The notes beneath the pieces are model-generated. The model was given only the letters and a program-made list of their open reading frames with translations, ran no database searches and was not told the DNA's origin. A DNA stretch of 64,000 nucleotides from Escherichia coli (GTDB lineage: Bacteria > Pseudomonadota > Gammaproteobacteria > Enterobacterales > Enterobacteriaceae), in NCBI RefSeq assembly GCF_003334385.1, contig NZ_QOWN01000001.1, one strand, 5' to 3'. Position numbers and translations under genes: made by a program. Below are positions 4,885 through 38,662 of the stretch, piece after piece. Positions within the stretch are counted from its first letter, which is position 1, and each line of letters opens with the position of its first letter.

Positions 4885-4892
4885 CCGATGAA

Positions 4893-4914
4893 GCGGCGGT
4901 AGAAGTGCCGCCGC
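4893..4914. terminator. GC hairpin (gcggcgg / ccgccgc) downstream of gltS, between convergent gltS and recG
   Basis: Inverted repeat seen in sequence; no T-run, so weak as an intrinsic terminator. Confidence 0.3.
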
Positions 4915-5052
4915 AACAAAGACAAATGCCTGATACGCTTCGCTTATCAAGCCTGCGTATTGATTCATAATTTATTGAATTTGTAGGGTGATGAATCGCA
5001 TCCGGCAGGAAGGTAGGGTAACCTGAAATGGCGGTCTTCTCACTGCCGCCTT

Positions 5053-7134
5053 TTACGCATTCGAGTAACGTTCCGTCTCCGGCATCCAGCGTTCTATCAG
5101 GGCTTTTGCCTGTTGTGGGTAACGTTCGTGAATATGGCGTGCCAGGCGCTGAACTTCCGGGATCATCGCCTGATCGCGCAGTAAATCCGCCACTTTAAAT
5201 TCAGCATTACCCGTCTGACGCGTGCCTAACAATTCGCCAGGGCCGCGAATCTCCAGATCTTTTTGCGCAATCACAAAACCGTCGTTACTGTCGCGCAGCA
5301 CTTGCAGGCGAATTTGCGCCGTTTTAGAAAGCGGCGTTTTGTAGAGCAGCACGCAGTGAGAAGCCACCGCGCCACGACCTACGCGCCCGCGCAGCTGGTG
5401 TAACTGCGCCAGACCCAGACGCTCCGGGTTTTCGATAATCATCAGACTGGCGTTAGGCACATCAACGCCGACTTCAATAACGGTTGTGGCAACCAGCAGG
5501 TGTAGCTCACCTTGTTTAAACGACGCCATCACCGCCTGTTTCTCGGCAGGTTTCATCCGCCCGTGTACCAGGCCAACGTTCAACTCTGGTAGCGCCAGTT
5601 TCAACTCTTCCCAGGTAGCTTCCGCCGCCTGCGCTTCCAGCAATTCCGACTCTTCAATCAACGTACAAACCCAGTATGCCTGACGACCTTCAGTTATGCA
5701 GGCGTGGTGCACGCGGTCAATGATGTCGGTACGGCGGGTATCAGGAATAGCGACCGTAGTCACTGGCGTGCGGCCTGGCGGCAGCTCATCTATCACCGAG
5801 GTATCGAGATCGGCATACGCAGTCATTGCCAGCGTGCGGGGGATCGGCGTGGCGGTCATGATCAACTGATGCGGATGGAAGCCCTGCTGCTGGCCTTTCT
5901 CCCACAATGCCAGACGCTGATGCACGCCAAAACGATGCTGTTCGTCGATAATCACCAGCGCCAGGCCGTTAAACTGCACCTGTTCCTGGAAGATGGCGTG
6001 TGTACCGACAATCATCTGCACCTGACCGCTGGCGATGGCTTCCTGCTGTGCCAGCCGTGCTTTACCTTTCTGCTTACCGGCGAGCCAGCCCACTTCGATA
6101 CCGAGCGGTGCAAACCAGTTGCGGAAGTTATTGGCGTGCTGCTCGGCGAGTAATTCGGTTGGTGCCATCAATGCTACCTGTTTGCCGTGGGCAATCGCAC
6201 GCAACGCGGCGAGGGCGGCGACCAGCGTTTTACCGGAACCTACATCGCCCTGCACCAGACGCATCATCGGCACATCCAGCGCCATATCGCGCTCGATCTC
6301 CGCCACTACGCGTGCCTGTGCGCCCGTTGGCTTGAACGGTAAGGCGGCGAGGAGTTTATTTTTCAGCGTGTCATTGGCGCTCAGCGGCTGGGCATGAAAA
6401 CGCTGTGCTCCGGCACGTAAGGCTAACATGCTGAGGTTGTGCGCCAGCAGTTCTTCCAGAATCAGACGACGTTGCGCCGGATGCTGCCCGGTTTCCAGAT
6501 CGCTAAGCTGTAGCGTCGGTGGCGGGCGGTGCAAAGTGCGCAACGCTTCCGGTAGCGTCATCATTCCTTGTGACAGTTCCGGCGGCAGGAGTTCTTCAAT
6601 GGCGCAGGTGTCGAGCAGATCCAGCGCCTGGTCGGTTAATTTACGCAGCGTGGCCTGCTTTACGCCTTCCGTTGTTGGATAAACCGGCGTGAGCGTTTCC
6701 TGTAATTCTGGCGTGCTGAGATCGCCCTGCACGCGGTATTCCGGGTGGATCATCTCCGCACCATATTTACCGCGCTTTGCTTCGCCATAAGCCAGTACAC
6801 GGCGGCCCGCCGCCAGGCTATTTTTCATTGCCGCGCTGAAATTGAAAAAGCGCATGGTGAGGATGCCGGAACCGTCGCTGATCTGGCAGGTCATCATCCG
6901 CCGACCGCCGAAGGAGATATTGCAGTTCAGCACTTCGCCTTCCACCGTGGCATAAACGCCCGGCAGTAGTTCTCCGATGGGGTAGAGATGGGTGCGATCT
7001 TCGTAGCGCAGGGGAAGGTGTAAGAGTAGATCCTGCACGGTATGCAGGTTGATTTTCGCCAGTTTGTTACTAAGTGCTGCGCCAACGCCCGTTAGGGAAC
7101 TGAGTGGGACAGCATCTAACAGGCGACCTTTCAT
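5053..7134 (-). CDS. recG: ATP-dependent DNA helicase RecG
   Basis: ORF track 5053..7167; start trimmed to MKGRLLDAVPLSSLTG (693 aa); helicase motifs GSGKT and DEQHRFG present. Confidence 0.92.
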   Translation of the reverse strand: MKGRLLDAVPLSSLTGVGAALSNKLAKINLHTVQDLLLHLPLRYEDRTHLYPIGELLPGVYATVEGEVLNCNISFGGRRMMTCQISDGSGILTMRFFNFSAAMKNSLAAGRRVLAYGEAKRGKYGAEMIHPEYRVQGDLSTPELQETLTPVYPTTEGVKQATLRKLTDQALDLLDTCAIEELLPPELSQGMMTLPEALRTLHRPPPTLQLSDLETGQHPAQRRLILEELLAHNLSMLALRAGAQRFHAQPLSANDTLKNKLLAALPFKPTGAQARVVAEIERDMALDVPMMRLVQGDVGSGKTLVAALAALRAIAHGKQVALMAPTELLAEQHANNFRNWFAPLGIEVGWLAGKQKGKARLAQQEAIASGQVQMIVGTHAIFQEQVQFNGLALVIIDEQHRFGVHQRLALWEKGQQQGFHPHQLIMTATPIPRTLAMTAYADLDTSVIDELPPGRTPVTTVAIPDTRRTDIIDRVHHACITEGRQAYWVCTLIEESELLEAQAAEATWEELKLALPELNVGLVHGRMKPAEKQAVMASFKQGELHLLVATTVIEVGVDVPNASLMIIENPERLGLAQLHQLRGRVGRGAVASHCVLLYKTPLSKTAQIRLQVLRDSNDGFVIAQKDLEIRGPGELLGTRQTGNAEFKVADLLRDQAMIPEVQRLARHIHERYPQQAKALIERWMPETERYSNA

Positions 7135-15795: not shown

Positions 15796-16512
15796 ATGCG
15801 TCCAGCAGGCCGTAGCAATAATCAGGTGCGTCCCGTTACCCTGACTCGTAACTATACAAAACATGCAGAAGGCTCGGTGCTGGTCGAATTTGGCGATACC
15901 AAAGTGTTGTGTACCGCCTCTATTGAAGAAGGCGTGCCGCGCTTCCTGAAAGGTCAGGGCCAGGGCTGGATCACCGCAGAGTACGGCATGCTGCCACGTT
16001 CTACCCACACCCGTAACGCTCGTGAAGCGGCGAAAGGTAAGCAGGGTGGACGCACAATGGAAATCCAGCGTCTGATCGCCCGTGCTCTTCGCGCGGCAGT
16101 AGATTTGAAAGCGCTGGGTGAGTTCACCATTACGCTGGACTGCGACGTGCTTCAGGCTGATGGTGGCACGCGTACCGCGTCGATTACGGGTGCCTGCGTG
16201 GCGCTGGTAGATGCGCTACAGAAGCTGGTGGAAAACGGCAAGCTGAAAACCAATCCGATGAAAGGGATGGTAGCCGCAGTTTCTGTCGGAATTGTGAACG
16301 GCGAAGCGGTTTGCGATCTGGAATACGTTGAAGACTCTGCCGCAGAGACCGACATGAACGTAGTGATGACCGAAGACGGGCGCATCATTGAAGTGCAGGG
16401 GACGGCAGAAGGCGAGCCGTTCACCCATGAAGAGCTACTCACCTTGTTGGCTCTGGCCCGAGGGGGAATCGAATCCATTGTAGCGACGCAGAAGGCGGCG
16501 CTGGCAAACTGA
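15796..16512 (+). CDS. rph: Ribonuclease PH, apparently full-length (238 aa)
   Basis: ORF track 15772..16512; start at [10 protein letters not shown]; frame runs uninterrupted to ...[14 protein letters not shown] and TGA at 16510-16512, a few nt before the pyrE attenuator hairpin. Confidence 0.9.
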
Positions 16513-20925: not shown

Positions 20926-21096
<171 letters not shown>

Positions 21097-21114
21097 TTCT
21101 CGCTTTGATGTAAC

Positions 21115-21145
21115 AAAAAACCTCGCTCCGGCGGGGTTTTTTGTT
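21115..21145 (+). terminator. Intrinsic terminator after rpmG (aacctcgc-tccg-gcggggtt + T-run)
   Basis: 8-bp stem with one G-U pair, followed by T6; read from sequence. Confidence 0.7.
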
Positions 21146-22041: not shown

Positions 22042-23806
<1,765 letters not shown>

Positions 23807-24125
23807 AGTAAATAGCTGACTTATGGATGTGCTGGGGATTCTATGTATTTAGCTGTGGCTTTACCATTACTTTTCCCGTTTTTGACTTAAATAGCTTCAG
23901 TTTGGTCTGATCTGCCGCTACATCTTCATTTTTTTTGTATTTTTATGCGATTCATTGAAACTCGGCCCCATTTTCAAATCTACATAGGCCGTACTGACAT
24001 TATCGAAATGCTATTTTTTATCTATTTGATTTTTATGATTAAAGTATATTTTGTGTATAAAAATCATTCGGGTCGGATTGCTGCGAAAGAAATGATACAC
24101 TAGCACGTCAAAGTAAGTGCGTTAT

Positions 24126-24164
24126 CAGTATTCAGGTAGCTGTTGAGCCTGGGGCGGTAGCGTG
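24126..24164 (+). promoter_or_regulatory. JUMPStart element with ops site GGCGGTAG (24153-24160) in the waaQ operon leader
   Basis: cagtattcaggtagctgttgagcctggggcggtagcgtg read from sequence about 50-85 bp upstream of waaQ; ops is the known RfaH recruitment site. Confidence 0.8.
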
Positions 24165-24247
24165 CTTTTTTCTGCTTAACTTAACCAGACAATCACACAA
24201 AAGAGTCGCTAGTGGAAAAGCCATTTCGAAAAATCCTGGTCATAAAG

Positions 24248-25282
24248 ATGCGATATCATGGGGATATGTTATTAACTACTCCTGTCATCAGTACGCTCAA
24301 GCAGAATTATCCTGATGCAAAAATCGATATGCTGCTTTATCAGGACACCATCCCTATTTTGTCTGAAAACCCGGAAATTAATGCGCTCTATGGGATAAGC
24401 AATAAAGGTGCGGGAACTTTCGATAAAATTAAAAATGTGCTTTCGTTGATAAAAACTCTGCGTGCGAATAATTATGACCTGGTCATTAATCTTACGGATC
24501 AGTGGATGGTGGCGCTGCTGGTACGTTGTTTACCTGCACGGATGAAAATATCGCAACTTTATGGTCATCGGCAGCATGGTATTTGGAAAAAAAGCTTCAC
24601 ACACTTAGCGCCAATACACGGTACACATATTGTTGAGCGTAATTTATCGGTCCTTGAGCCATTAGGTATTACCGATTTCTACACCGACACAACAATGAGT
24701 TACGCCGAAGATTGCTGGAAGAAGATGCGCCGGGAATTAGATGCCCTGGGCGTAAAAGATCATTATGTTGTCATCCAACCGACAGCGCGTCAGATATTTA
24801 AGTGTTGGGATAACGATAAATTTTCTAAGGTTATCGATGCGCTGCAACAGCGAGGCTATCAGGTTGTGCTAACCTGTGGGCCCTCGGCAGATGATCTCGC
24901 TTGTGTAGATGAGATTGCACGAGGTTGCGAAACAAAACCCATTACTGGCCTTGCAGGTAAAACACGTTTTCCTGAACTGGGTGCATTAATTGATCATGCA
25001 GTGCTTTTTATTGGTGTGGATTCTGCGCCGGGACATATTGCAGCGGCAGTGAAAACGCCAGTCATTAGTCTATTTGGTGCAACGGATCACGTATTCTGGC
25101 GTCCCTGGACCGAGAATATTATTCAATTCTGGGCGGGGAATTATCAGAAAATGCCGACCCGGCATGAACTTGACCGCAACAAAAAATATCTTTCTGTTAT
25201 CCCAGCGGAGGATGTGATCGCCGCTACGGAAAAGCTGTTGCCAGAAGATGCCCCTTCAGCTGACAGGAATGCACAATTATGA
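24248..25282 (+). CDS. waaQ: LPS core heptosyltransferase III
   Basis: ORF track 24212..25282 (GTG start, 356 aa); ATG at 24248 gives 344 aa; start choice is uncertain because the longer form includes a conserved KILVIK N-terminus. Confidence 0.88.
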   Translation: MRYHGDMLLTTPVISTLKQNYPDAKIDMLLYQDTIPILSENPEINALYGISNKGAGTFDKIKNVLSLIKTLRANNYDLVINLTDQWMVALLVRCLPARMKISQLYGHRQHGIWKKSFTHLAPIHGTHIVERNLSVLEPLGITDFYTDTTMSYAEDCWKKMRRELDALGVKDHYVVIQPTARQIFKCWDNDKFSKVIDALQQRGYQVVLTCGPSADDLACVDEIARGCETKPITGLAGKTRFPELGALIDHAVLFIGVDSAPGHIAAAVKTPVISLFGATDHVFWRPWTENIIQFWAGNYQKMPTRHELDRNKKYLSVIPAEDVIAATEKLLPEDAPSADRNAQL

Positions 25283-26403
25283 TCGTGGCGTTTTGTTTAT
25301 ATAAATATTTTCCATTTGGTGGGCTTCAACGTGACTTTATGCGCATTGCATCAACAGTTGCCGCACGGGGCCACCATGTTCGGGTATATACACAGTCGTG
25401 GGAAGGCGATTGCCCGAAAGCATTTGAGCTTATTCAGGTGCCAGTTAAGTCCCATACCAACCATGGACGCAATGCAGAATATTATGCCTGGGTACAAAAT
25501 CATCTCAAAGAGCATCCCGCAGATCGCGTTGTTGGGTTTAATAAGATGCCTGGCCTGGATGTTTATTTTGCCGCTGATGTTTGTTACGCCGAGAAAGTTG
25601 CGCAAGAAAAAGGTTTTTTATATCGTTTAACATCACGATATCGCCATTATGCCGCATTTGAGCGAGCGACTTTCGAGCAGGGTAAATCGACGAAACTTAT
25701 GATGCTGACCGATAAGCAAATCGCCGATTTCCAGAAGCATTATCAAACTGAACCTGAACGTTTTCAAATTCTTCCTCCCGGTATTTATCCGGACAGAAAA
25801 TACAGTGAGCAAATCCCAAACAGCCGTGAAATTTATCGCCAGAAAAATGGCATAAAAGAGCAACAAAACTTATTACTGCAGGTTGGATCAGATTTTGGCC
25901 GTAAAGGTGTAGATCGCTCAATTGAAGCTTTGGCATCGTTACCGGAATCATTACGTCACAATACGCTTTTATTTGTTGTTGGTCAGGATAAGCCGCGAAA
26001 ATTTGAAGCGCTGGCAGAAAAACTCGGCGTGCGGAGCAATGTGCATTTCTTCTCCGGTCGCAATGATGTGTCAGAATTAATGGCAGCCGCTGATTTATTA
26101 CTGCATCCCGCTTATCAGGAAGCCGCGGGTATCGTTCTTCTAGAAGCGATCACTGCTGGGTTACCTGTTTTAACAACAGCGGTATGTGGGTACGCGCATT
26201 ATATTGCGGATGCCAATTGTGGAACGGTCATCGCTGAACCTTTCTCTCAGGAACAATTAAATGAAGTTTTACGTAAAGCGCTAACTCAGTCGCCATTGCG
26301 AATGGCCTGGGCGGAGAATGCTCGCCATTATGCCGATACTCAGGATTTGTATAGCTTGCCAGAAAAAGCCGCGGATATCATTACAGGTGGTTTAGATGGT
26401 TGA
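25279..26403 (+). CDS. waaG: LPS core glucosyltransferase I
   Basis: 374 aa GT4-family protein; 4-nt overlap with waaQ. Confidence 0.92.
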
Positions 26404-27193
26404 ATTAAAAGAGCCGCTTGCCACACTTTGGCGTGGTAAAGATGCTTTTGCAGAGGTCAAAAAACTGAACGGCGAGGTCTTTCGTGAACTGGAGACTCGT
26501 CGTACATTACGCTTTGAACTGTCCGGGAAAAGCTATTTTCTTAAATGGCACAAGGGGACGACATTAAAAGAGATTATAAAAAATCTACTCTCATTGCGGA
26601 TGCCCGTTTTGGGCGCAGACAGAGAGTGGCACGCTATTCATCGCCTGAGTGATGTTGGCGTTGATACAATGAAGGGCATTGGGTTTGGCGAAAAAGGGTT
26701 AAATCCATTAACTCGCGCATCATTTATTATTACCGAAGATCTCACTCCCACAATTAGCCTTGAAGATTATTGTGCCGATTGGGCAGTCAACCCGCCTGAT
26801 ATACGTGTTAAGCGTATGCTGATCGCACGTGTAGCAACTATGGTGCGTAAAATGCATACTGCAGGGATAAATCACCGCGACTGTTACATTTGCCACTTTT
26901 TGCTTCATTTGCCATTTACTGGCCGGGAAGATGAATTAAAAATTTCAGTTATCGATCTGCATCGGGCACAGATACGTGTAAAATTACCGCGCCGCTGGCG
27001 CGATAAAGACCTGATTGGTTTATATTTCTCATCAATGAATATTGGCCTGACGCAAAGAGATATCTGGCGATTTATGAAGGTTTATTTTGGGATGCCTTTA
27101 CGCAAAATATTGTCTCTTGAACAGAATTTATTGAACATGGCAAGCGTTAAGGCCGAGCGTATTAAAGAGCGAACACAACGCAAAGGATTATAA
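26396..27193 (+). CDS. waaP: LPS core heptose(I) kinase
   Basis: 265 aa; kinase-like motif [11 protein letters not shown]. Confidence 0.92.
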
Positions 27194-27229
27194 AAATATT
27201 TATTAGTATGTACTGGAACTAACTTTATT

Positions 27230-28165
27230 ATGACTATTTATTTTATAAATTGGGTTGCAGATTATGAATTAAAAATGATTCAGTACCTGAAAAAAAAGTA
27301 CAAGATAAAAAATATAACAACACCAAAAAAATATAACTGGATTAATAAAAAAATATCAAAAATAGGGATGGATAATGCATGGCTGGGGCGATTATTCATC
27401 AAGCATTACCTCAATGATATTAAAAAAGATGACATAATTATCATTAATGACAGTGTTGTTAATAAAGGTATCAATAAACAAATATTAAAAAATATTAACT
27501 GTCATAAAGTTTTGCTTCTAAGAAATACTGTTGGCGAAGATTTTATTCTTGATAACGCGAATTATTTCGATATTATATATGATTTTGAGCATAGATTTAT
27601 AGGGAATGAAAAGATCAAGGCAATAGAACAATTTTTTCCTATAGGAATGGATGAAATTAGAAATTATAGTTTATCTGACAAAAATAACAGCCAGCCAATA
27701 TGTTTTTTCCTTGGTCGTGATAAAGGGCGTCTTCAAATAATTAATGAGTTAGCCGAGAGATTAACAACACTAGGATGTAAGCTAGATTTTAATGTTGTCA
27801 AAGATAAGACATCATCTACGACTTCAAAGTATTTGATTGAAAAACAAATATCTTATGAAGAGAATATTAGAAGAACATTAAATGCTAATATAATTGTTGA
27901 TATAACCAAAGAAAACCAATCTGGCTGGACTCTTCGTATACTTGAGGCACTATTTTTCAATAAAAAATTAATTACTAATAATATAAATGTATTTGGTTCA
28001 GAAATCTATAGTGAATCTCGCTTTTTTATAATAGGTCATGATGATTGGGATAAGTTAGAGTATTTTATTAACTCATCTGTTAAACCAATGGATTATGATA
28101 GTTTATATAAATTCAGTCCAGATAAAATGATGTCAACGATTGTTTCTGATTTTATAGACAAATAA
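27230..28165 (+). CDS. waaS: LPS core biosynthesis protein WaaS
   Basis: 311 aa; strongly AT-rich coding sequence; position after waaP as in the K-12 core type. Confidence 0.85.
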
Positions 28166-28208
28166 AACCGTTAAAACAGTGAGTTTTACTCAATTAATGA
28201 GAGTTTCT

Positions 28209-29288
28209 ATGAAAATAGCGTTTATCGGCGAAGCTGTTTCTGGATTTGGCGGCATGGAAACTGTCATCCGTGATGTTATTACTACCTTCAGGCAACAACA
28301 TATCCAAAGTGAAATGTTTTTCTTTTGTCGTAATGACAAAATGGATAAGGGATGGCTGGAAGGTATTAAATACTCATGTTCATTTTCCAATATTCGTTTA
28401 GGTTTTTTGCGTCGGGCGAAACATATTCATGCTCTAAGTAAATGGCTTCAGGAGTACCAACCAGATATCGTTATTTGTATTGATGTGATCTCCTGCCTGT
28501 TTGCCGCAAAAGCACGTAAAAAATCAGGAATTGATATGCCAGTATTTTCATGGCCACATTTTTCTTTAGATCACAAAAAACATGCTGAATATATCACCTG
28601 TGCCGACTATCATTTAGCAATCAGCTCTGGCATTAAACAGCAAATGATTAATCGAGGTGTAGCAGAATCGACGATAAATGTTATTTTTAATCCCGTCGAA
28701 ACTAAAGACTCAGTCATTCCCGCGCCCGAGGAAGGTGAAACGGCAACGTTTATTTATGTTGGGCGTATGAAATTTGAAGGCCAGAAAAGAGTTAAAGACC
28801 TGCTTGATGGCTTATCACAAGCGAAAGGTAACTGGAAACTCCATGTATTGGGTGATGGCTCCGATTTCGAAAAATGCCAGGCTTATGGTAGAGAATTAAA
28901 TATTGATGATCGAATTGTCTGGTATGGTTGGCAACAATATCCCTGGGAATTGGTCCAGCAAGATATTGAAAAAGTGAGTGCGTTATTGCTCACGTCATCT
29001 TTTGAAGGTTTCCCAATGACCCTACTTGAAGCCTTGTCGTGGGGGATTCCTTGTATCAGTGCCGATTGTGTCTCCGGGCCTGCTGACATTATTCAACCTG
29101 ATGTCAATGGCCATCTGTATCAACCGGGAGATATTGCTGGTTTTGTAACTCTTCTAAATAAATATATAGCAGGTGAAATTCATATCGAACATGAAAAAAT
29201 TCCTGCGTCGATCGATGAATTTTACCAATCGAAGTATTACGATAGATTACATAAGGTAATTATTTCTGCTATTTCCCGGAGGAAATAA
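28209..29288 (+). CDS. waaB: LPS core 1,6-galactosyltransferase
   Basis: ORF track 28179..29288; start trimmed to MKIAFIGEAVSGFGGMETV (359 aa), GT4 family. Confidence 0.88.
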   Translation: MKIAFIGEAVSGFGGMETVIRDVITTFRQQHIQSEMFFFCRNDKMDKGWLEGIKYSCSFSNIRLGFLRRAKHIHALSKWLQEYQPDIVICIDVISCLFAAKARKKSGIDMPVFSWPHFSLDHKKHAEYITCADYHLAISSGIKQQMINRGVAESTINVIFNPVETKDSVIPAPEEGETATFIYVGRMKFEGQKRVKDLLDGLSQAKGNWKLHVLGDGSDFEKCQAYGRELNIDDRIVWYGWQQYPWELVQQDIEKVSALLLTSSFEGFPMTLLEALSWGIPCISADCVSGPADIIQPDVNGHLYQPGDIAGFVTLLNKYIAGEIHIEHEKIPASIDEFYQSKYYDRLHKVIISAISRRK

Positions 29289-30307
29289 TGCAGCAGGTGT
29301 TTTTCCAGGAAACTGAGTTTCTTAATTCAGTTATTGATTATGATCATAAAGTAGAAACAGAAAATCTTTGTCTGGACATCGCTTATGGAACTGACAAAAA
29401 CTTTCTATTTGGTTGCGGAATTTCGATTGCTTCAATATTAAAATATAATGAAGGAAGTCGATTGTGTTTCCATATTTTTACTGATTATTTTGGTGATGAT
29501 GATCGTAAGTATTTTGATGCCCTGGCGTTGCAGTATAAAACCAGAATTAAAATATATCTGATTAATGGTGATCGACTGCGCTCATTGCCTAGCACTAAGA
29601 ATTGGACTCATGCAATATATTTTCGTTTTGTTATTGCAGATTACTTTATTAATAAGGCGCCTAAAGTCCTTTATCTGGATGCAGATATCATTTGTCAGGG
29701 GACTATTGAGCCACTAATTAATTTCTCATTTCCTGACGATAAAGTCGCAATGGTTGTTACAGAAGGGCAAGCTGACTGGTGGGAAAAACGCGCCCATTCG
29801 TTAGGTGTTGCGGGAATTGCTAAAGGTTACTTTAACTCCGGTTTTTTATTGATTAATACTGCCCAATGGGCGGCTCAGCAGGTTTCTGCACGAGCTATTG
29901 CAATGCTAAATGAGCCAGAAATAATCAAAAAAATAACACATCCTGATCAGGATGTGTTAAATATGTTGCTGGCGGATAAACTTATTTTCGCTGATATTAA
30001 ATATAACACCCAGTTCAGCTTAAATTATCAACTCAAAGAAAGCTTTATAAACCCAGTAACCAACGATACTATTTTTATCCATTATATCGGGCCAACCAAG
30101 CCCTGGCATGATTGGGCCTGGGATTATCCTGTATCACAAGCCTTTATGGAGGCAAAAAATGCTTCGCCATGGAAGAATACGGCGTTGCTGAAACCGAACA
30201 ATAGCAATCAATTAAGATATAGCGCAAAACATATGCTTAAAAAGCATAGATATCTAAAAGGATTTAGCAACTATCTTTTTTATTTTATTGAAAAGATAAA
30301 GCATTAA
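29288..30307 (+). CDS. waaO: LPS core 1,3-glucosyltransferase (GT8)
   Basis: 339 aa; GT8 motifs; paralogous to the next gene. Confidence 0.88.
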   Translation: MQQVFFQETEFLNSVIDYDHKVETENLCLDIAYGTDKNFLFGCGISIASILKYNEGSRLCFHIFTDYFGDDDRKYFDALALQYKTRIKIYLINGDRLRSLPSTKNWTHAIYFRFVIADYFINKAPKVLYLDADIICQGTIEPLINFSFPDDKVAMVVTEGQADWWEKRAHSLGVAGIAKGYFNSGFLLINTAQWAAQQVSARAIAMLNEPEIIKKITHPDQDVLNMLLADKLIFADIKYNTQFSLNYQLKESFINPVTNDTIFIHYIGPTKPWHDWAWDYPVSQAFMEAKNASPWKNTALLKPNNSNQLRYSAKHMLKKHRYLKGFSNYLFYFIEKIKH

Positions 30308-30346
30308 AACTGGGAAACTATAAAGTAATGATATAAGGGTAGCATT

Positions 30347-31363
30347 GTGGACTCATTTCCTGCCATAGAGATAGATAAAGTTAAAGCCTGGGATTTTCGG
30401 CTAGCTAATATAAATACTTCTGAATGTTTAAATGTTGCCTATGGTGTCGATGCTAATTATCTTGATGGTGTAGGTGTTTCCATCACATCAATTGTCCTAA
30501 ATAATCGACATATTAATCTTGATTTTTATATTATTGCTGATGTTTATAATGATGGTTTTTTTCAAAAAATTGCAAAGCTTGCAGAGCAAAACCAATTAAG
30601 AATCACGTTATATAGAATTAACACTGATAAGCTCCAGTGCTTGCCTTGTACACAGGTCTGGTCAAGAGCAATGTACTTCCGTTTATTTGCATTTCAATTA
30701 TTGGGTTTAACGCTTGATCGTTTGCTTTATCTTGATGCAGATGTTGTTTGTAAAGGCGATATTAGCCAACTATTACATCTGGGTTTAAATGGAGCGGTTG
30801 CTGCTGTTGTTAAAGATGTTGAGCCAATGCAAGAAAAGGCGGTATCCAGGTTGTCTGATCCTGAATTACTTGGGCAGTACTTTAATTCCGGTGTCGTTTA
30901 TTTAGACTTAAAAAAATGGGCTGACGCAAAACTAACAGAAAAAGCGTTGTCTATTCTTATGAGTAAAGATAATGTTTATAAATACCCTGATCAGGATGTT
31001 ATGAATGTCTTACTGAAAGGGATGACATTATTTTTGCCTCGTGAGTACAATACAATTTATACAATTAAAAGTGAATTAAAAGACAAAACACATCAAAACT
31101 ATAAAAAGCTGATTACAGAAAGTACTCTTCTTATTCATTATACAGGTGCAACTAAACCGTGGCACAAATGGGCAATTTATCCATCGGTAAAATACTATAA
31201 AATAGCTTTAGAAAATTCCCCCTGGAAAGATGACTCTCCACGAGATGCGAAATCAATTATTGAATTTAAAAAAAGATATAAACATCTTTTAGTGCAACAT
31301 CATTATATCTCAGGAATTATAGCAGGAGTCTGTTATCTTTGCCGAAAATATTACCGTAAATAA
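30347..31363 (+). CDS. waaJ: LPS core 1,2-glucosyltransferase (GT8)
   Basis: 338 aa; GT8 motifs (NVAYGVDANYL, DQDVMN). Confidence 0.88.
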   Translation: MDSFPAIEIDKVKAWDFRLANINTSECLNVAYGVDANYLDGVGVSITSIVLNNRHINLDFYIIADVYNDGFFQKIAKLAEQNQLRITLYRINTDKLQCLPCTQVWSRAMYFRLFAFQLLGLTLDRLLYLDADVVCKGDISQLLHLGLNGAVAAVVKDVEPMQEKAVSRLSDPELLGQYFNSGVVYLDLKKWADAKLTEKALSILMSKDNVYKYPDQDVMNVLLKGMTLFLPREYNTIYTIKSELKDKTHQNYKKLITESTLLIHYTGATKPWHKWAIYPSVKYYKIALENSPWKDDSPRDAKSIIEFKKRYKHLLVQHHYISGIIAGVCYLCRKYYRK

Positions 31364-31380
31364 CATTTAACTGGTTTATT

Positions 31381-32079
31381 ATGATTCAGAAGAGCAAGAT
31401 CAAAGACTTGGTTGTTTTTACCGATGAAAACAATTCAAAGTACCTCAATGTATTAAATGACTTCTTGTCTTATAATATAAATATCATCAAGGTTTTTCGT
31501 TCTATTGATGATACAAAAGTTATGCTTATTGATACCGATTACGGTAAATTGATTCTTAAGGTTTTTTCTCCGAAAGTTAAGCGTAACGAACGTTTCTTTA
31601 AGTCTCTGTTAAAAGGTGATTATTACGAACGCCTTTTTGAGCAAACCCAAAAAGTACGAAATGAAGGGTTAAATACACTCAATGACTTTTATTTATTGGC
31701 TGAACGGAAAACCTTACGTTTTGTCCATACTTATATCATGATCATCGAGTATATTGATGGCATAGAGTTGTGTGATATGCCCGATATTGATGATGCGCTA
31801 AAAAATAAAATTCAGCAATCAATTAATGCCTTACATCAACATGGCATGGTTTCTGGCGACCCCCATCGTGGTAACTTCATTATAAAAAATGGTGAGGTTC
31901 GAATTATCGATCTCTCCGGAAAGCGTGCTTCAGCGCAGCGTAAAGCGAAAGATCGTATTGACTTAGAGCGTCATTACGGTATTAAAAATGAGATTAGAGA
32001 TCTAGGCTATTATCTTTTAGTATATCGTAAAAAAATGCGCAATTTTATGCGGCGTTTGAAAGGGAAACCAGCGCGCTAA
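31381..32079 (+). CDS. waaY: LPS core heptose(II) kinase
   Basis: 232 aa; kinase-like motif GDPHRGNFI. Confidence 0.88.
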   Translation: MIQKSKIKDLVVFTDENNSKYLNVLNDFLSYNINIIKVFRSIDDTKVMLIDTDYGKLILKVFSPKVKRNERFFKSLLKGDYYERLFEQTQKVRNEGLNTLNDFYLLAERKTLRFVHTYIMIIEYIDGIELCDMPDIDDALKNKIQQSINALHQHGMVSGDPHRGNFIIKNGEVRIIDLSGKRASAQRKAKDRIDLERHYGIKNEIRDLGYYLLVYRKKMRNFMRRLKGKPAR

Positions 32080-32149
32080 AAAAAATCCCACAATTACATG
32101 TCTTCACCAGGACAGTTTTAAGCGGAGTTATTTATTTCACAGGTTTATC

Positions 32150-33001
32150 ATGAAGAATATTAGATACATTGACAAAAAAGATGTTGAAAACCTGATTGAA
32201 AATAAAACATCTGATGATGTTATTATTTTTCTTTCGGGCCCTACATCGCAAAAAACACCTTTGTCAGTATTACGAACAAAGGATATTATTGCTGTCAATG
32301 GTTCTGCGCAATATCTGTTAAGTAATAATATCGTTCCTTTTATATATGTACTTACAGATGTCCGATTTTTACATCAGCGTCGTGATGATTTTTATAAATT
32401 TAGCCAGAGAAGTCGTTATACCATAGTAAACGTTGACGTTTATGAACACGCTTCCAAAGAAGATAAACTTTATATCCTCCAGAACTGCCTCGTATTACGG
32501 TCCTTTTACCGTCGGGAAAAAGGTGGTTTTATAAAGAAGATTAAATTTAATATTTTGAGACAGATTCACAAAGAACTGCTGATCTCTGTACCGTTGTCTA
32601 AAAAAGGTCGTCTGGTTGGATTTTGCAAGGACATTAGTCTTGGTTATTGCTCATGCCATACTATTGCCTTTGCTGCAATTCAAATCGCATATTCACTTAA
32701 GTATGCGCGGATTATTTGTTCTGGTCTTGATTTAACGGGTAGCTGTTCTCGTTTCTATGATGAGAATAAAAATCCCATGCCCTCGGAATTAAGTAGGGAT
32801 TTATTCAAAATATTGCCATTTTTTCGTTTTATGCATGATAATGTAAAAGATATTAATATTTATAATTTATCAGATGATACAGCTATTTCTTACGATGTAA
32901 TTCCATTTATTAAACTTCAAGACATCAGTGCAGAAGAATCAAAAGATATGACAAGGAAAAAAATGCAATATAGAACTTCAACCGATTCTTATGCTAATTA
33001 A
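32150..33001 (+). CDS. waaZ: LPS core biosynthesis protein WaaZ
   Basis: 283 aa; position and length as in the K-12 core cluster. Confidence 0.85.
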   Translation: MKNIRYIDKKDVENLIENKTSDDVIIFLSGPTSQKTPLSVLRTKDIIAVNGSAQYLLSNNIVPFIYVLTDVRFLHQRRDDFYKFSQRSRYTIVNVDVYEHASKEDKLYILQNCLVLRSFYRREKGGFIKKIKFNILRQIHKELLISVPLSKKGRLVGFCKDISLGYCSCHTIAFAAIQIAYSLKYARIICSGLDLTGSCSRFYDENKNPMPSELSRDLFKILPFFRFMHDNVKDINIYNLSDDTAISYDVIPFIKLQDISAEESKDMTRKKMQYRTSTDSYAN

Positions 33002-33033
33002 TCATCCTGAAACTAAAATAATATGGTATAAAA

Positions 33034-34107
33034 ATGCGCTTAGGAACTTTTCACAAAAAGAAAAGATTTTATATAAACAAAATCAAGATTAATTTCCTTT
33101 CTTTTTTATTTCGTAATAAAATAAATAATCAAATTACAGATCCAGCACAAGTTAAATCATGCCTTATTATTCATGATAATAATAAACTTGGTGATCTAAT
33201 TGTATTAAGTTCGATTTATCGTGAACTTTATAGTAAAGGGGTTAAAATAACTCTTCTCACAAATAGAAAGGGTGGGGAATTTCTCTCTAATAATAAAAAT
33301 ATATTTGAGTTCTGTATTAAAGAATCAACCGGTTTTCTTGAAATGCTTACTCTATGTAAGCATCTGCGGGATTTACAGTTCGATATTGTATTAGACCCCT
33401 TTGAAACTATGCCCTCATTTAAGCATAGCTTAATATTATCAAGTTTAAAAGATTCTTACATTCTGGGTTTTGATCATTGGTATAAGCGTTACTATTCATT
33501 TTACCATCCCCACGATGAATGTTTAAAAGAACATATGAGTACACGAGCAATAGAAATACTGAAGCATATTTATGGTGAGGGTAAATTTTCCACCAACTAC
33601 GACTTGCATTTACCAGTAGATGTTGAAGATAAAATAAAAGAATTTATTGGAGATACAAGAATAGTCATTATTAATCCATTAGGTGCAAAAAAAATATGCC
33701 GTCTTACGTTTGAGCAAATAAAAGTTATATATCAAGAAGTGAAAACACACTTTGAAAATTATCGGATTATATTTACCGGGTTACCGCAAGATTTATTGAC
33801 AATACCAATACTTGAAATCGAAACACTACCATTTGATGAGTTTATTTATACCGTTGCGTTGACCAAGTATAGTGATTTTGTCATTTCTGTTGATACAGCT
33901 CTTGTTCATATCGCTGCGGCTTATCATAAACCAACGCTTGCATTTTACCCTAATTCACGTACTCCGGAATATCCCTCGCATTTAATTTGGTCCCCGAATC
34001 ATCATAAATCTATACAAATAGTATCCCCAACATATACGGTAAAAGATATCGATACTGAAACTTTAACTAATTCAGTAAAGAGATTAAGTTGTATAGATAA
34101 GAAGTGA
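33034..34107 (+). CDS. waaU: LPS core heptosyltransferase IV
   Basis: 357 aa GT9-like protein at the end of the waaQ operon. Confidence 0.85.
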   Translation: MRLGTFHKKKRFYINKIKINFLSFLFRNKINNQITDPAQVKSCLIIHDNNKLGDLIVLSSIYRELYSKGVKITLLTNRKGGEFLSNNKNIFEFCIKESTGFLEMLTLCKHLRDLQFDIVLDPFETMPSFKHSLILSSLKDSYILGFDHWYKRYYSFYHPHDECLKEHMSTRAIEILKHIYGEGKFSTNYDLHLPVDVEDKIKEFIGDTRIVIINPLGAKKICRLTFEQIKVIYQEVKTHFENYRIIFTGLPQDLLTIPILEIETLPFDEFIYTVALTKYSDFVISVDTALVHIAAAYHKPTLAFYPNSRTPEYPSHLIWSPNHHKSIQIVSPTYTVKDIDTETLTNSVKRLSCIDKK

Positions 34108-34138
34108 GTTTTAACTCACTTCTTAAACTTGTTTATTC

Positions 34139-35398
34139 TTAATTAATTGTATTGTTACGATTATTAATGACGAGTAAGAGGACTATAGCGGATATAATGA
34201 TAATTGGAATGCTGCGTGCCCATATGATCACATCACTGAGTCCAATCCCCACAATGCCAAGCGTTAATATCAACAAACCCAAAGCTCGTTTTTTATATGC
34301 TATATAAAATAGTGAAAAATAGAGGAAAAGTGTGGAAAAAATTCCCATCAGACCTTTCAGTGACCCTGCTTCAATTATCTCATTATGTAGATGTACGTTA
34401 GAAAACTCCAATGCCCCTCTTAGCCTATTGTGTTCTGCAACTAACAAATTCATACTTTCAGCGCGTGACTCTGCTGATCTAAATGAAAAAGGTGACTTTA
34501 TGAATATATTTAAACCAATTTCGTACATTGCCAGTCTTGCACCTAGGGAAGTAACACTATTAGCATTGGTATAACTGTTTAAGTCATTTAATGCTTCATT
34601 ATAGCGATTCTGTATTGGTTTATTAAATATAATAACAATGCTAGCTAATATAGCAATTAGTAGAACAATAGAGGAAGTGAATTTCTTGGGTGATTTATTA
34701 TAATAAGCTATTAATGCAGCAACACAAATTATAGGGAACAGGAGTAGGGTTGCTCTGGTTTGTGTTAGCGCCAGAACATAAAGTACCGCGCAACTATTTA
34801 ATAAAAATAAAAAAGGATGATTTTTCTTAGTATAAAGAATCGCAACGCCACTAACTATCCCTATTAGCATTGTTGAATATGCTGCTCCTGTTGCCGTTCC
34901 TACACCAAAAGAAATGCGGTCATTTTCATGAATGCTATTAATATACATTGCATATCCAGCAATTAGAAATGACAGAGAATACAAAGTGTATAATACACTC
35001 TCTTTTTTTGATTTTAGCTGGCTAGTTAGTGTCAAGAAAACAATAAAAGAACCAAATATAAATATTTTGGCAGTATTTAAATAACTATGGTAAGTAGCAC
35101 GAAATGGCGAATTATCTACTTTAAACGCAGAATACCAAATTAAATCAAGCAAGCCTATTAAAAATATAGAAAGGGGAAGAATAAGGTTTTTTATATTATA
35201 ATTTTCTTGTCTGCCACGTAAAATTAGTGACAATAAGCAAACTATAGCAGTGATATTATATATTTTTATGCTGAAAGTATTATCGACGAATGCAATTATC
35301 ATTGAAAAAAAACATAATATATAAGTTATTATCTCTAAAATCATTGATGATTTCAGAGTGTAAGGTTTCAATGAATGAAGTTTAAAGGATGTTAGCAT
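34139..35398 (-). CDS. waaL: O-antigen ligase
   Basis: 419 aa polytopic membrane protein; last gene of the hldD-waaF-waaC-waaL operon. Confidence 0.88.
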   Translation of the reverse strand: MLTSFKLHSLKPYTLKSSMILEIITYILCFFSMIIAFVDNTFSIKIYNITAIVCLLSLILRGRQENYNIKNLILPLSIFLIGLLDLIWYSAFKVDNSPFRATYHSYLNTAKIFIFGSFIVFLTLTSQLKSKKESVLYTLYSLSFLIAGYAMYINSIHENDRISFGVGTATGAAYSTMLIGIVSGVAILYTKKNHPFLFLLNSCAVLYVLALTQTRATLLLFPIICVAALIAYYNKSPKKFTSSIVLLIAILASIVIIFNKPIQNRYNEALNDLNSYTNANSVTSLGARLAMYEIGLNIFIKSPFSFRSAESRAESMNLLVAEHNRLRGALEFSNVHLHNEIIEAGSLKGLMGIFSTLFLYFSLFYIAYKKRALGLLILTLGIVGIGLSDVIIWARSIPIIIISAIVLLLVINNRNNTIN

Positions 35399-35407
35399 GT
35401 TTTACCT

Positions 35408-36367
35408 TTATAATGATGATAACTTTTCCAAAACTGCTTGACTGTTGAGGTTAATTAAATTTTCTCTTGGAGCCCTACATACCATCTGATTCTTCCCATA
35501 CCCACCAATTAATCCCGGATCGGTTGGTCCATAAACCGTGATATTGGGTCTATCCAGTGCCGCCGTTAAATGGCTTAACCCCGTATCCACCGACACTACA
35601 AATTTAGCCCCGGCCAGCACGCGGGCAACGCCTTCCAGACTCATCTTCGGCAATACTTCAACATAAGCAAATCCTTCCGCCAGTCGTTTCGCCCGTTCTT
35701 CCTCATGCGGCGCGCCCCACGGAAGTTTAATCCGTATTCCTGAATCAGCCAGTAAACCAATCAATTCTCGCCAGTGTTCTTCCGGCCAGTGTTTATCATC
35801 ACGGGTCGTCGCATGAAGAAATACGGCATATTCGCCAGCATCTGTAGGCAGGTTCGTCAGAAAATGCTGTGCGATAGCATAATCGCCCTGGGTTTGCGGT
35901 TTGCTATAGCCCAAACTTTTGGCAAACAGTTCGCGGGTGCGTTCTACGGCGTGCTGCTGTTTTGCAATATGATGCTTACGATTGTAAAACAGGCTGGCTA
36001 AAGGTTCGCGAGCGGTTTGCCAGTCCATGCCATGCTTTACGCCATGCGCCAGACGCGTCACCAGCGCCGCGCTTTTTACCAGCCCCTGAGCGTCGATAAC
36101 TGCGTCATAGTTCTCTGCTTGTAGCGCTTCACGAAACGCTTTGCGTTCCGCTTTTATGGGGGCCGAGAACCAGGCTTTACGCCAGCGACGTATTGCCACA
36201 GGAATAACTCGCTCAACGGCAGCGTGCCAGGAAGGAATCTGTGCGAACCCTTCTTCCACCACCCAGTCAAACTTAATCCCTGGGATTGCCTGCTGGGCAT
36301 CAGTGAGTGCGGGCAACGTATGGAGAACATCGCCCATCGACGATGTTTTAACGATCAAAACCCGCAT
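35408..36367 (-). CDS. waaC: LPS heptosyltransferase I
   Basis: 319 aa, MRVLIVKTSSMGDVLHTLPALTDA. Confidence 0.92.
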   Translation of the reverse strand: MRVLIVKTSSMGDVLHTLPALTDAQQAIPGIKFDWVVEEGFAQIPSWHAAVERVIPVAIRRWRKAWFSAPIKAERKAFREALQAENYDAVIDAQGLVKSAALVTRLAHGVKHGMDWQTAREPLASLFYNRKHHIAKQQHAVERTRELFAKSLGYSKPQTQGDYAIAQHFLTNLPTDAGEYAVFLHATTRDDKHWPEEHWRELIGLLADSGIRIKLPWGAPHEEERAKRLAEGFAYVEVLPKMSLEGVARVLAGAKFVVSVDTGLSHLTAALDRPNITVYGPTDPGLIGGYGKNQMVCRAPRENLINLNSQAVLEKLSSL

Positions 36368-36370
36368 CCG

Positions 36371-37417
36371 TCAGGCTTCCTCTTGTAACAATAGCGCGTT
36401 GAGTTCTTCCAGTACGCGCTGGGGAGTAATGTTGATTAAGCTCTGGTGATAACCCTCCGCAGCGTCACCTTTACGCACTTTGTGATAGCCGGTAATCAAA
36501 CGGATCACGCGCGCTTTATGGGATAGCGGCGGTGTGAAGTCCGGGCTACTCGGACCATACAGGGCAACCAGCGGACGATTGAGCGCCGCCGCAACATGCA
36601 TCAGGCCAGAATCGTTAGTGACAATGGCTTTACAGGCTGCAATCAGGATAACCGCTTGATCAAGCTGTGTTTCCCCCGCCAGGTTCCGACACCATGCCTG
36701 CTGCTCGGTATTCAAAGCGGCAAGAATCTCATTGCCCGCTTCATGATCTTTCGCCGAGCCAAACAGAACCACCTGATAACCTTCATCAATCAGCTGCTTT
36801 GCCAGCTCCGCATAGTGGTAGTGTGGCCAGCGTTTTGCCGGACCAAACTCCGCACCCGGGCAAAAACCAATCATCGGACGTTCTGATGAAAGCGAAAATT
36901 GATTACAGGTATATGATTTTTCACCTTCGCTCACCTGCAACTGCGGCCATAACAATGGCTGCGGCAGATCTTGTGCTGTGCGCATAATGCCTTTGTCATA
37001 GGCCAGCGCTATATAGCGTTCCACCATTAGCGGCCAGGCTTCTTTATCGAGCACGCGTACATCGTTGAGTAAACCGTAGCGCATCTCGCCGCGCCAGCCG
37101 GTGCGATGAGGAATACCCGCGAAGAAAGGCACTAATGCAGATTTGAAGGAGTTGGGTAAGACGTAGGCGCGGTCGTAGCGCTTTTCACGCAGGCTATGAC
37201 CCAGTTTGCGGCGTTCGCCGATTTCCAGCGCTCCGTGACCGAGAGGCATAGGAATAGCTTCGTTAACTTCCGGCATCCGCGATAATAATGGACGGCACCA
37301 TGCCGGTGCCATCACATCGATTATCGCCTGGGGATAGCGCGCCTGGAGCGTGCGATAGAGACTTTGCGACATCATCATGTCGCCAACCCAAGACGGGCCG
37401 ATCACCAGTATTTTCAT
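36371..37417 (-). CDS. waaF: LPS heptosyltransferase II
   Basis: 348 aa, MKILVIGPSWVGDMMMSQSLYRTL. Confidence 0.92.
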   Translation of the reverse strand: MKILVIGPSWVGDMMMSQSLYRTLQARYPQAIIDVMAPAWCRPLLSRMPEVNEAIPMPLGHGALEIGERRKLGHSLREKRYDRAYVLPNSFKSALVPFFAGIPHRTGWRGEMRYGLLNDVRVLDKEAWPLMVERYIALAYDKGIMRTAQDLPQPLLWPQLQVSEGEKSYTCNQFSLSSERPMIGFCPGAEFGPAKRWPHYHYAELAKQLIDEGYQVVLFGSAKDHEAGNEILAALNTEQQAWCRNLAGETQLDQAVILIAACKAIVTNDSGLMHVAAALNRPLVALYGPSSPDFTPPLSHKARVIRLITGYHKVRKGDAAEGYHQSLINITPQRVLEELNALLLQEEA

Positions 37418-37426
37418 GCAGAGCTC

Positions 37427-38359
37427 TTATGCGTCGCGATTCAGCCAGGCCATGTATTCCGTTACACCTTCAGCAACGGTTTTGAACGGTTTGTCGTAAC
37501 CCGCCGCGCGCAGATTTGTCAGATCTGCCTGAGTGAACGCCTGATAGCGGCCTTTCAGTTTATCCGGGAACGGAATGTATTCGATCTGGCCTTTCTTGTG
37601 ATAAGCCAGCGTAGCATCAGCTACCGCCTGGAAGGATTCCGCACGACCAGTACCGAGATTGAAGATGCCGGAAACGCCATTTTCCAGGAACCACAGATTC
37701 ACATCAGCCACGTCGCCCACATAGACGAAGTCGCGTTTGAAGTTCTCGCTACCTTCAAACAGCTTCGGTGATTCACCGTTGTTAAGCTGGGTGTTGAGAT
37801 GGAAAGCGACGCTCGCCATGCTGCCTTTATGGCCTTCACGCGGTCCATAAACGTTGAAATAACGGAAGCCAACAATCTGCGAGTTCGCTTCAGGCAGGAT
37901 TTGACGAACATATTCATCAAACAGGAATTTTGAGTAACCGTAGACGTTCAACGGTTTTTCGTACTCGCGGGATTCAATAAAGTCGGAGGTGCGTCCGCCG
38001 TAGGTGGCTGCGGAAGAAGCGTACAGGAACGGGATTTCACGCTCCAGGCAGTAGTGCAGCAGCTCCTTGGAGTATTGATAGTTGTTATCCATCATATACT
38101 TGCCGTCCCACTCGGTGGTGGAAGAGCACGCGCCTTCGTGGAAAATCGCTTCGACATCGCCGAACTCTTCGCCAGCCATAATCTGGATCAGGAAGTCTTC
38201 CTTATCCATATAGTCTGCGATATTCAGATCCACCAGGTTCACAAACTTGGTGCCGTCTTTCAGGTTGTCCACCACCAGAATATCGGTGATGCCTTTATCA
38301 TTCAGGGCTTTAACGATGTTGCTGCCGATAAAGCCCGCGCCGCCGGTAACGATGATCAT
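37427..38359 (-). CDS. hldD: ADP-L-glycero-D-manno-heptose 6-epimerase
   Basis: 310 aa, [23 protein letters not shown] (Rossmann fold). Confidence 0.93.
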
Positions 38360-38662
38360 AACTGTAACCTTCGAATTATGGAGTCAGAGACAATCTCAGA
38401 CACGAATGTCTGTAATCATACCATCACATCCGAATCCCTTCAGCCCTTTACATAGAGGTGCAAGGATGCTAATTGCAACAAACTAGTTTGGGTTTTAGCT
38501 AGTCCTTCATGGCGGATGTTGGTTTTGCATGTGAATAGTGCTTTAGTATCAATATTCCGATGTATGATAAATAACGGAAGCATTTGAATGGATAATATAC
38601 AGTATACATTCTATTAATATTTATGATATAATTCTTTTTTTATATTAATGGTCTTATTAGTA

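Follow-up and report, generated by a model that had tools for sequence, protein, structure and literature searches.

Genes for the outer core of lipopolysaccharide (LPS) in Escherichia coli lie in DNA that is rich in A and T, which raises the question of whether this composition marks a recent import or a long-standing property of the locus. We addressed this question for the block from waaS to waaL at positions 27230–35398 of a 64,000-nucleotide stretch of the E. coli contig NZ_QOWN01000001.1 (assembly GCF_003334385.1); this whole stretch is referred to below as the window. The block very probably represents the outer-core and ligase genes of a K-12-type waa (rfa) locus and forms an old, exchanged and roughly stationary AT-rich cassette that is expressed under RfaH. 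Its trough in G+C (GC) content, the cassette structure of the locus, core typing and control by RfaH are already known, and the observation of the trough in the window is correct and ordinary. The synteny of the cassette across genera with a retained trough, and the balanced flux of substitutions within it, are small additions to this picture.

Over the block, GC content was 0.333, compared to 0.510 in the remaining window and 0.487 in the window as a whole. A 1-kb profile gave values of 0.286–0.375 over 27–35 kb and mostly 0.49–0.59 elsewhere, and six non-overlapping window chunks of the same size as the block (8,169 bp) had GC contents of 0.484–0.542. The 8,169-bp stretch with the lowest GC content in the window is the block itself (minimum 0.332, start at 27187). 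Windows of 500 bp averaged 0.335 inside the block, with a maximum of 0.414, versus 0.512 outside (standard deviation 0.055; Mann-Whitney p = 6e-10). These values for 27–35 kb differ strongly from the window average and bear out the initial annotation, which had described the coding sequence from waaS through waaL as AT-rich relative to its flanks. The block coordinates correspond exactly to the interval between the start codon of waaS and that of waaL, which is encoded on the minus strand, and an additional composition break-point was found at 23790. Three tiers of composition could be distinguished: GC contents of 0.51–0.54 in waaA, waaC, waaF, hldD, kbl and tdh, of 0.43–0.45 in waaQGP, and of 0.27–0.40 in the outer-core and ligase genes. 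The contrast that had been drawn with both groups of neighbours therefore holds for waaC, waaF and hldD but not for waaQGP, which, with a third-position GC content (GC3) of 0.37–0.41, is intermediate and unlike the flanks.

GC content was lowered at all three codon positions in the block, with GC3 values of 0.23–0.35 versus 0.48–0.63 in the flanks, and 75% of its codons end in A or T (46% in the flanks). The richness in AAA and TTT codons that had been noticed by eye was confirmed by the comparison of codon usage, which gave, per 1000 codons, 64 AAA and 46 TTT in the block versus 37 and 19 in the flanks. CTG was reduced to 12 per 1000 codons compared to 55 in the flanks, whereas the rare codons ATA (33.5 versus 3.5) and AGA (11.4 versus 0.8) were enriched about 10-fold. 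Synonymous codon usage differed between block and flanks with a chi-square of 612 (41 degrees of freedom), and runs of five or more A/T nucleotides occurred at 9.7 per kb versus 3.65 per kb. The dinucleotide signature distance was 93 for the block and averaged 45 for the other chunks. In the encoded proteins, Lys, Asn, Ile, Phe and Tyr were increased and Ala, Gly, Arg and Pro decreased.

The core type predicted from the genes of the block is securely K-12. Open reading frames (ORFs), family matches and RefSeq annotation agree on the order waaQ-G-P-S-B-O-J-Y-Z-U facing hldD-waaF-C-L, and the genes of the block are named rfaS, waaB, waaO, rfaJ, rfaY, waaZ, waaU and waaL on identical DNA in RefSeq. 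Gene order and orientation are those of the MG1655 waa (rfa) genes b3619–b3632, including rirA, yibX and yibY. In MG1655 the region corresponds, in reverse complement, to b3619–b3637, with only 7 single-nucleotide polymorphisms (SNPs) in 18 kb (waaG, one; waaP, two; waaZ, two; waaF, one; coaD, one), and the whole 64-kb window is 99.96% identical to MG1655 3768346–3832345 (22 SNPs and 4 one-base indels). waaL is the terminal gene of the opposing hldD-waaFCL operon, and the block covers the convergent ends of two operons.

Comparison with reference loci for the other core types supported this assignment. The references were taken from complete genomes, and their gene names were checked against PMC13293308 (R1, waaO-T-Y-W-V-L; R2, wabA-B-O-J-Y-Z-K and a separate waaL; R3, waaO/I-Y-J-D and a separate waaL; R4, waaO-T-Y-W-X-L). 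WaaS and WaaU had no counterpart in the R1, R2, R3 and R4 reference loci, and the K-12 WaaL was 30–31% identical to the R1 and R4 ligases and did not match those of R2 and R3. waaS directly follows waaP, a place occupied by wabA in R2 (PMC13293308). When the window was searched by tblastn with the proteins of waaV (R1), wabA and waaK (R2), waaD (R3) and waaX (R4), matches were either absent or at the level of paralogues (24–32%; waaJ, waaG, waaH), and the R2 waaL likewise gave a paralogue-level match or none. In silico PCR with the K-12 typing primers (waaY to waaU; PMC13293308) found exact sites at 31939–31961 (+) and, for primer K12-F in waaU, at 33360–33380 (−), yielding the expected 1,442 bp, while the R1–R4 typing primers had no site in the window with up to 2 mismatches allowed. 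That the locus should instead be of type R1–R4 or a K-12/R2 hybrid has next to no probability left. Natural hybrids of this kind have been reported (PMC13293308), and waaB, waaO, waaJ, waaY and waaZ are common to R2 at 86–90% nucleotide identity, but at waaS, waaU and waaL the window carries the K-12 alleles without any difference from MG1655, and the R2 markers and primer sites are missing. The gene content waaS-B-O-J-Y-Z-U-L had thus rightly been read as K-12 rather than R1–R4, which makes a useful annotation of the window and adds nothing new.

The functions of the enzymes are those given in the MG1655 record and the literature (PMC6358824), with sugar residues abbreviated as Glc (glucose), Gal (galactose), Hep (heptose), Rha (rhamnose) and Kdo (3-deoxy-D-manno-octulosonic acid). 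WaaO adds GlcII, WaaJ (WaaR) GlcIII and WaaB the Gal branch. WaaU transfers HepIV, the region to which O-antigen is attached in K-12, WaaY is the kinase of HepII, and WaaL ligates the O-antigen. In stress-induced glycoforms, WaaZ adds KdoIII and WaaS adds Rha. The genes waaS, B, O, J, Y, Z and U, which form the 3' part of the waaQ operon, would accordingly extend and decorate the core oligosaccharide, for which the K-12 type predicts a Glc-Glc-Glc backbone bearing Gal and HepIV, and waaL would ligate O-antigen to that specific core and, together with waaS–U, determine the core type. The core type in turn decides which O-antigens the ligase attaches, governs the recognition of rough and semi-rough cells by phages, colicins, antibodies and host lectins, and serves in strain typing.

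A GC trough of 0.30–0.40 was present in all five core types. The R2 locus combines K-12-like waaQGP (WaaQ, 98%) and the same trough with wabA (GT8) in place of waaS, waaK in place of waaU and an unrelated waaL (PMC13293308). The R1, R3 and R4 loci occupy the same chromosomal site between conserved flanks (waaA and waaC-F-hldD, ~99%) and have an AT-rich centre (GC 0.30–0.38), but carry other glycosyltransferase sets (waaT/W/V, waaI/J/D and waaT/W/X, respectively) and a different or inverted waaL; only WaaO, WaaJ and WaaY have counterparts there, at 40–58% identity. Strain DP033, which probably belongs to sequence type complex 131 (STc131) as judged from PMC8715443, has a K-12-type locus with the same gene content (waaQGPSBOJYZU and waaL) and the same trough. 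Its genes from waaO to waaL are 96–98% nucleotide-identical to those of the window (synonymous divergence, dS, 0.06–0.12), with waaS and waaB intermediate at 92–94%. In a further strain, E. coli ATCC BAA-196, an IS5 element is inserted in waaB (positions 4410–6688 of that locus), while the locus is otherwise 100% identical to the waa locus of the window.

Almost all complete genomes matched the locus (5,425 of 5,426), and an alternative cassette is found here in each of the five reference loci. Among the 5,425 genomes matching 23800–38500, 1,037 covered at least 80% of the region and the rest retained ~42–74%. Because alternative cassettes are found at the same site in all references, the variation is one of allelic replacement and not of insertion. 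Homology to R1, R3 and R4 is lost at 27089 and regained at 35451–35487, and the composition change-points at 27003 and 35468 fall within waaP and waaC, ~190 bp and ~60 bp from their respective 3' ends. The coincidence of both kinds of border indicates that the junctions are intragenic, in the 3' parts of both genes. The segment would be one of at least five alternative cassettes in the species that lineages exchange through homologous recombination in conserved neighbours, with recombination junctions here in the 3' ends of these two genes and, in some lineages, probably further left, beyond waaQ.

Indeed, the most divergent genes between the window and DP033 were waaQGP, with 69–81% nucleotide identity and dS values of 1.3–3.0 (waaQ, 69%, dS ~3), and the DP033 locus is a mosaic of R1/R3/R4-class waaQGP and a K-12 outer core. 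E. coli thus has two allele classes of waaQGP. WaaQ is 72% identical between the classes versus 78–83% between K-12 and other (Citrobacter-like) genera, while WaaF, examined as a control, is 99% identical within E. coli versus 94% between genera. Judged by their sequences, the two waaQGP classes appear as far apart from each other as E. coli is from other genera. Their divergence together with their intermediate GC content suggests that the anomalous part of the locus starts at the waaA-waaQ intergenic region and not at waaS. As waaQGP are the most divergent genes yet only intermediate in GC, the AT-rich and the exchanged parts of the locus do not exactly coincide.

An island carried by a mobile element was considered and rejected. 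The composition of the block is atypical, but there are no tRNA genes in 18–44 kb, no mobility genes (integrase, transposase, insertion sequence (IS)) in the annotation of the locus, and only short AT-rich chance repeats at its borders, and a homologous alternative is present at the site in all five reference loci. Two of the 5,442 matching places in the genome search were on plasmid-labelled records; one 1,907-bp 'ST131 chromosome' record holds a waaU fragment only, and these are probably artefacts of assembly or labelling.

A protein search with WaaS returned homologues labelled Citrobacter that were 49–55% identical. In two non-Escherichia loci carrying such homologues, whose names are source labels (L008/L009 with 'Citrobacter amalonaticus', as P0011 is labelled, and the metagenome scaffold L011), the housekeeping flanks are ~82% nucleotide-identical to E. 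coli. Both share the chromosomal site of the E. coli locus, between waaA and hldD, and have nearly its gene order, with waaQGP-S-B-O-J-(Y)-Z-U facing waaL-C-F-hldD; waaY is absent from L011, and an IS1 transposase follows waaY in L009. Their outer-core proteins are 51–79% identical to those of the window, compared to 84–98% for WaaA, WaaC, WaaF and HldD, and both loci show a GC trough (0.33–0.47 in L008, where it is shallower, and 0.29–0.40 in the other). WaaU is 61–62% and WaaL 58–60% identical to the window proteins. Given the much lower identity to the R1 and R4 ligases, the K-12 WaaL is closer to the Citrobacter-like ligases than to those of other E. coli types. A published statement holds that homologues of the variable region are lacking outside Escherichia and Shigella; the cross-genus synteny with its retained trough qualifies this statement at the protein level, as a small addition.

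We also used the WaaS homologues to look for a low-GC donor, a candidate origin that was rejected, the nearest non-Escherichia relatives being enterobacterial and syntenic. More distant homologues (31–32% identical) were found on Pseudomonas-like contigs, outside any waa context and at a host-like GC content of 0.56–0.57. On L013, a partial homologue of WaaS (35% identical, covering 40% of the query; gene GC 0.21) lies in a low-GC LPS- or lipooligosaccharide (LOS)-like cluster together with rml genes, a setting that fits a rhamnosyltransferase role; this gene is too distant to name a donor.

How such DNA is transcribed is suggested by the leader of the waaQ operon. The ops element GGCGGTAGnnTG lies on the non-template strand of this 5' leader and precedes the start of the waaQ ORF by 48 bp, and both ops and the surrounding JUMPstart element are located inside the annotated rirA RNA. 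According to the literature, RfaH is required for transcription of the distal waa genes in K-12 (PMC6358824, PMC5449661), H-NS binds and silences waa, and without RfaH, Rho terminates at many weak sites (PMC5449661, PMC9765446). The ops/JUMPstart leader of the window fits RfaH-dependent expression. AT-rich and rare-codon-rich DNA, prone to H-NS and Rho, would then be transcribed because JUMPstart/ops in the waaQ leader loads the anti-terminator RfaH, and the AT-richness itself may be linked to RfaH/H-NS/Rho control. The rfb O-antigen and capsule clusters of Enterobacteriaceae are likewise low-GC polymorphic cassettes with conserved flanks that depend on RfaH and have a JUMPstart/ops leader (PMC6358824), but are other loci with other enzymes than waa.

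Substitutions in waaB, waaO, waaJ, waaY and waaZ were polarised by parsimony with the (diverged) R2 locus as outgroup. We counted 75 changes from AT to GC and 76 from GC to AT, which implies an equilibrium GC content of 0.354, compared to a current value of 0.357. An AT-to-GC share of 65%, as expected under amelioration to 51%, was rejected in this three-taxon polarisation (p = 1e-4). The per-site bias of GC-to-AT over AT-to-GC changes was 1.79 in the flanks and 1.83 in the block, and the flank genes showed a net GC-to-AT excess (18 AT-to-GC versus 36 GC-to-AT changes) at GC 0.53. The ratio of nonsynonymous to synonymous divergence (dN/dS) was 0.08–0.21 in the block versus 0.01–0.04 in waaC, waaF and hldD. 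With a trough in all core types and in syntenic genera, and with balanced fluxes, the AT-richness looks old and stable and is not evidence of recent import. The data suggest an old, roughly stationary AT-rich cassette rather than a fresh, unameliorated import. Most likely, the low GC content would reflect weakly expressed genes under relaxed constraint that have come close to an AT-biased mutational equilibrium. Tentatively, one may go further and take the K-12 outer-core cassette and its linked waaQGP class as an ancient, genus-spanning polymorphism that Citrobacter-like enterobacteria share at the equivalent site, with 33% GC as a neutral mutational equilibrium of enterobacterial DNA under relaxed selection and not a foreign mark; we regard this as slightly less likely than not.

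Several observations weigh against an old and stationary cassette. A stricter four-taxon polarisation gave 39 AT-to-GC and 31 GC-to-AT changes and did not reject amelioration (p = 0.10), and on the R2 branch AT-to-GC changes exceeded those from GC to AT, 73 to 39. Few substitutions were counted, and parsimony may mis-assign changes when the outgroup is diverged. Over short times, divergence tells more about mutation bias than about what is fixed in the long term, which makes 'stationary' suggestive only. The cross-genus synteny could come from transfer between genera instead of common ancestry, and the species names of both non-Escherichia loci rest on source labels.

A recent, unameliorated import from a low-GC donor outside the Enterobacteriaceae would account for the strong deviation in composition, codon usage and dinucleotide signature, and the drop in GC content has already been published together with its reading as horizontal gene transfer of unknown origin (PMC8715443); the distant WaaS-like gene in the low-GC cluster of L013 would also fit. 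We nevertheless consider such an import very unlikely, since two other enterobacterial lineages have the same cassette with its trough in syntenic position although the proteins are only 51–79% identical, substitution fluxes are balanced, and neither tRNA genes, IS elements, integrases nor border repeats were found. In addition, the shift of GC1 and GC2 (the first and second codon positions) and of amino-acid composition points to long residence under AT pressure, and the Pseudomonas-like WaaS homologues have a host-like GC content. The initial annotation had called the low GC content the usual signature of the horizontally exchanged, type-determining part of the locus. This agrees with PMC8715443 and with the trough in all five types; however, waaQGP are exchanged as well, and low GC is not evidence that the import was recent.

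Alternatively, AT-richness could be selected, either as a target for H-NS and Rho in the control by RfaH/RirA and stress, or through rare codons that limit translation. The retention of the trough in different core types and genera whose sequences turn over rapidly, the presence of ops/JUMPstart, the published action of H-NS, RfaH and Rho on waa, and the enrichment of ATA and AGA are in line with this idea. Since the per-site mutation bias of the block equals that of the flanks and the block already lies at its predicted equilibrium, no extra force is needed, and waaL is equally AT-rich in a different operon that lacks ops; we consider selection for low GC an unlikely explanation, though a less improbable one than recent import. 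Hardly any weight remains for an artefact of protein composition, in which AT-richness would follow from amino-acid needs such as those of the Ile/Phe/Leu-rich membrane protein WaaL. WaaL is indeed a polytopic membrane protein, and residues with AT-rich codons (F, Y, M, I, N and K) make up 31–47% of the block proteins versus 20–33% in the flanks. However, GC3 and synonymous codon usage are shifted as well, the soluble glycosyltransferases and kinases match WaaL in AT-richness, and the intergenic spacers are also AT-rich (GC 0.26), so that synonymous-site and intergenic composition rule this explanation out.

If the cassette is old, AT-rich at a steady state and shared across genera, as suggested here, a modest wider point is that polysaccharide loci should less routinely be taken as recently acquired by horizontal transfer on the grounds of low GC content. 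Should the ancient-polymorphism reading prove true, the rule that low GC means imported would be wrong for waa and, by extension, for polysaccharide loci of the rfb type, and the published absence of homologues outside Escherichia and Shigella would be contradicted at the protein level.

The features of the locus are listed in Table 1. NCBIfam equivalog models were counted above their curated cut-offs, and gene names were also taken from the RefSeq annotation of identical DNA and from the MG1655 record.

Table 1 Features of the waa locus in the window, with positions, strands and supporting evidence.
Feature	Position	Strand	Evidence
Low-GC segment, GC 0.333	27003–35468		Two-break maximum-likelihood segmentation, log-likelihood gain 260
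rirA, small RNA / 5' leader of waaQ operon	24108–24180	+	MG1655 b4760 mapped, sequence identical; function PMC6358824
JUMPstart element	24126–24164	+	Rfam RF01707, 55.2 bits vs gathering score 35, E = 2.4e-10
ops site GGCGGTAGCGTG within JUMPstart	24153–24164	+	12-mer, sole match in window, 0.04 expected by chance
waaQ-waaG-waaP, HepIII transferase, GlcI transferase, HepI kinase; GC 0.43–0.45	24212–27193	+	RfaQ 682 bits, RfaP 463 bits
waaS, rhamnosyltransferase of alternative glycoforms; GC 0.268, minimum of the block	27230–28165	+	NCBIfam WaaS/CpsH 179 bits vs cut-off 60; b3629
waaB, 1,6-galactosyltransferase; GC 0.396	28209–29288	+	NF007396 611 bits vs 385; b3628
waaO, alpha-1,3-glucosyltransferase (GlcII); GC 0.362	29288–30307	+	NF011718 582 bits vs 461; b3627
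waaJ (= waaR), alpha-1,2-glucosyltransferase (GlcIII); GC 0.338	30347–31363	+	b3626; GT8 paralogue of waaO, 34% identical
waaY, HepII kinase; GC 0.353	31381–32079	+	NF007684 400 bits vs 248
waaZ, KdoIII transferase; GC 0.327	32150–33001	+	NF007333 555 bits vs 473
waaU, HepIV transferase, GT9, K-12-specific; GC 0.310	33034–34107	+	Identical to MG1655 b3623; directly after waaZ
Palindromic hairpin, 12-bp perfect stem, between convergent waaU/waaL stops	34098–34125		Terminator-like scan and sequence reading
waaL, O-antigen ligase, K-12 allele; GC 0.319	34139–35398	−	Identical to b3622
yibY, small ORF antisense within waaL	34197–34307	+	MG1655 b4796 mapped; sequence identical
yibX / yibX-S, small ORFs antisense within waaL	34332–34574	+	MG1655 b4795 mapped; sequence identical
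waaC-waaF-hldD, conserved inner-core flank; GC 0.51–0.54	35408–38359	−	NCBIfam equivalogs 632, 750 and 677 bits

The sources disagree on the name of waaO, which is a 'lipopolysaccharide 3-alpha-galactosyltransferase' in NCBIfam and the NCBI annotation pipeline (PGAP) and a UDP-glucose:(glucosyl)LPS alpha-1,3-glucosyltransferase in the MG1655 record. Start positions differ for waaQ (24212 versus 24248 in MG1655), and the longest ORF for waaB begins at 28179, compared to the annotated 28209. The hairpin between waaU and waaL is probably a bidirectional terminator. Apart from this hairpin, a scan for terminator-like sites was uninformative in the window (15 sites versus 12.7 in shuffles), as was a promoter consensus scan (52 promoter-like sites versus 47.9). 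Sub-threshold Rfam matches to istR and Leu_leader at 21069–21144 were dismissed as only the terminator hairpin downstream of rpmG, unrelated to the locus.

Beyond the waa cluster, waaH/yibD (42265–43299, GC 0.46) is a gene for an LPS glucuronic acid (GlcUA) transferase. The N-terminal half of the R1 WaaV matches it at 32% identity, suggesting a common GT2 domain. A second AT-rich islet at 38360–39794 contains htrL/yibB (38663–39520; GC 0.37, with flanking intergenic regions at 0.34–0.39). htrL is present in the K-12, R1 and R3 strains and absent from DP033 and the R2 and R4 reference strains, where kbl directly follows hldD; this presence/absence polymorphism is independent of core type. The end of the window (62105–64000) is AT-rich as well (GC 0.35) and corresponds to the MG1655 genes and pseudogenes yibU/yibV/yibW/yibS/yibG, with a single-base indel relative to MG1655 at 62673. 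At 16462, within rph (~15.8–16.5 kb), the window has one extra G compared to MG1655, which carries the rph-1 frameshift ('truncated RNase PH'). With rph intact, the strain of the window seems to be rph+ and hence neither MG1655 nor W3110 itself, but closely related to MG1655.

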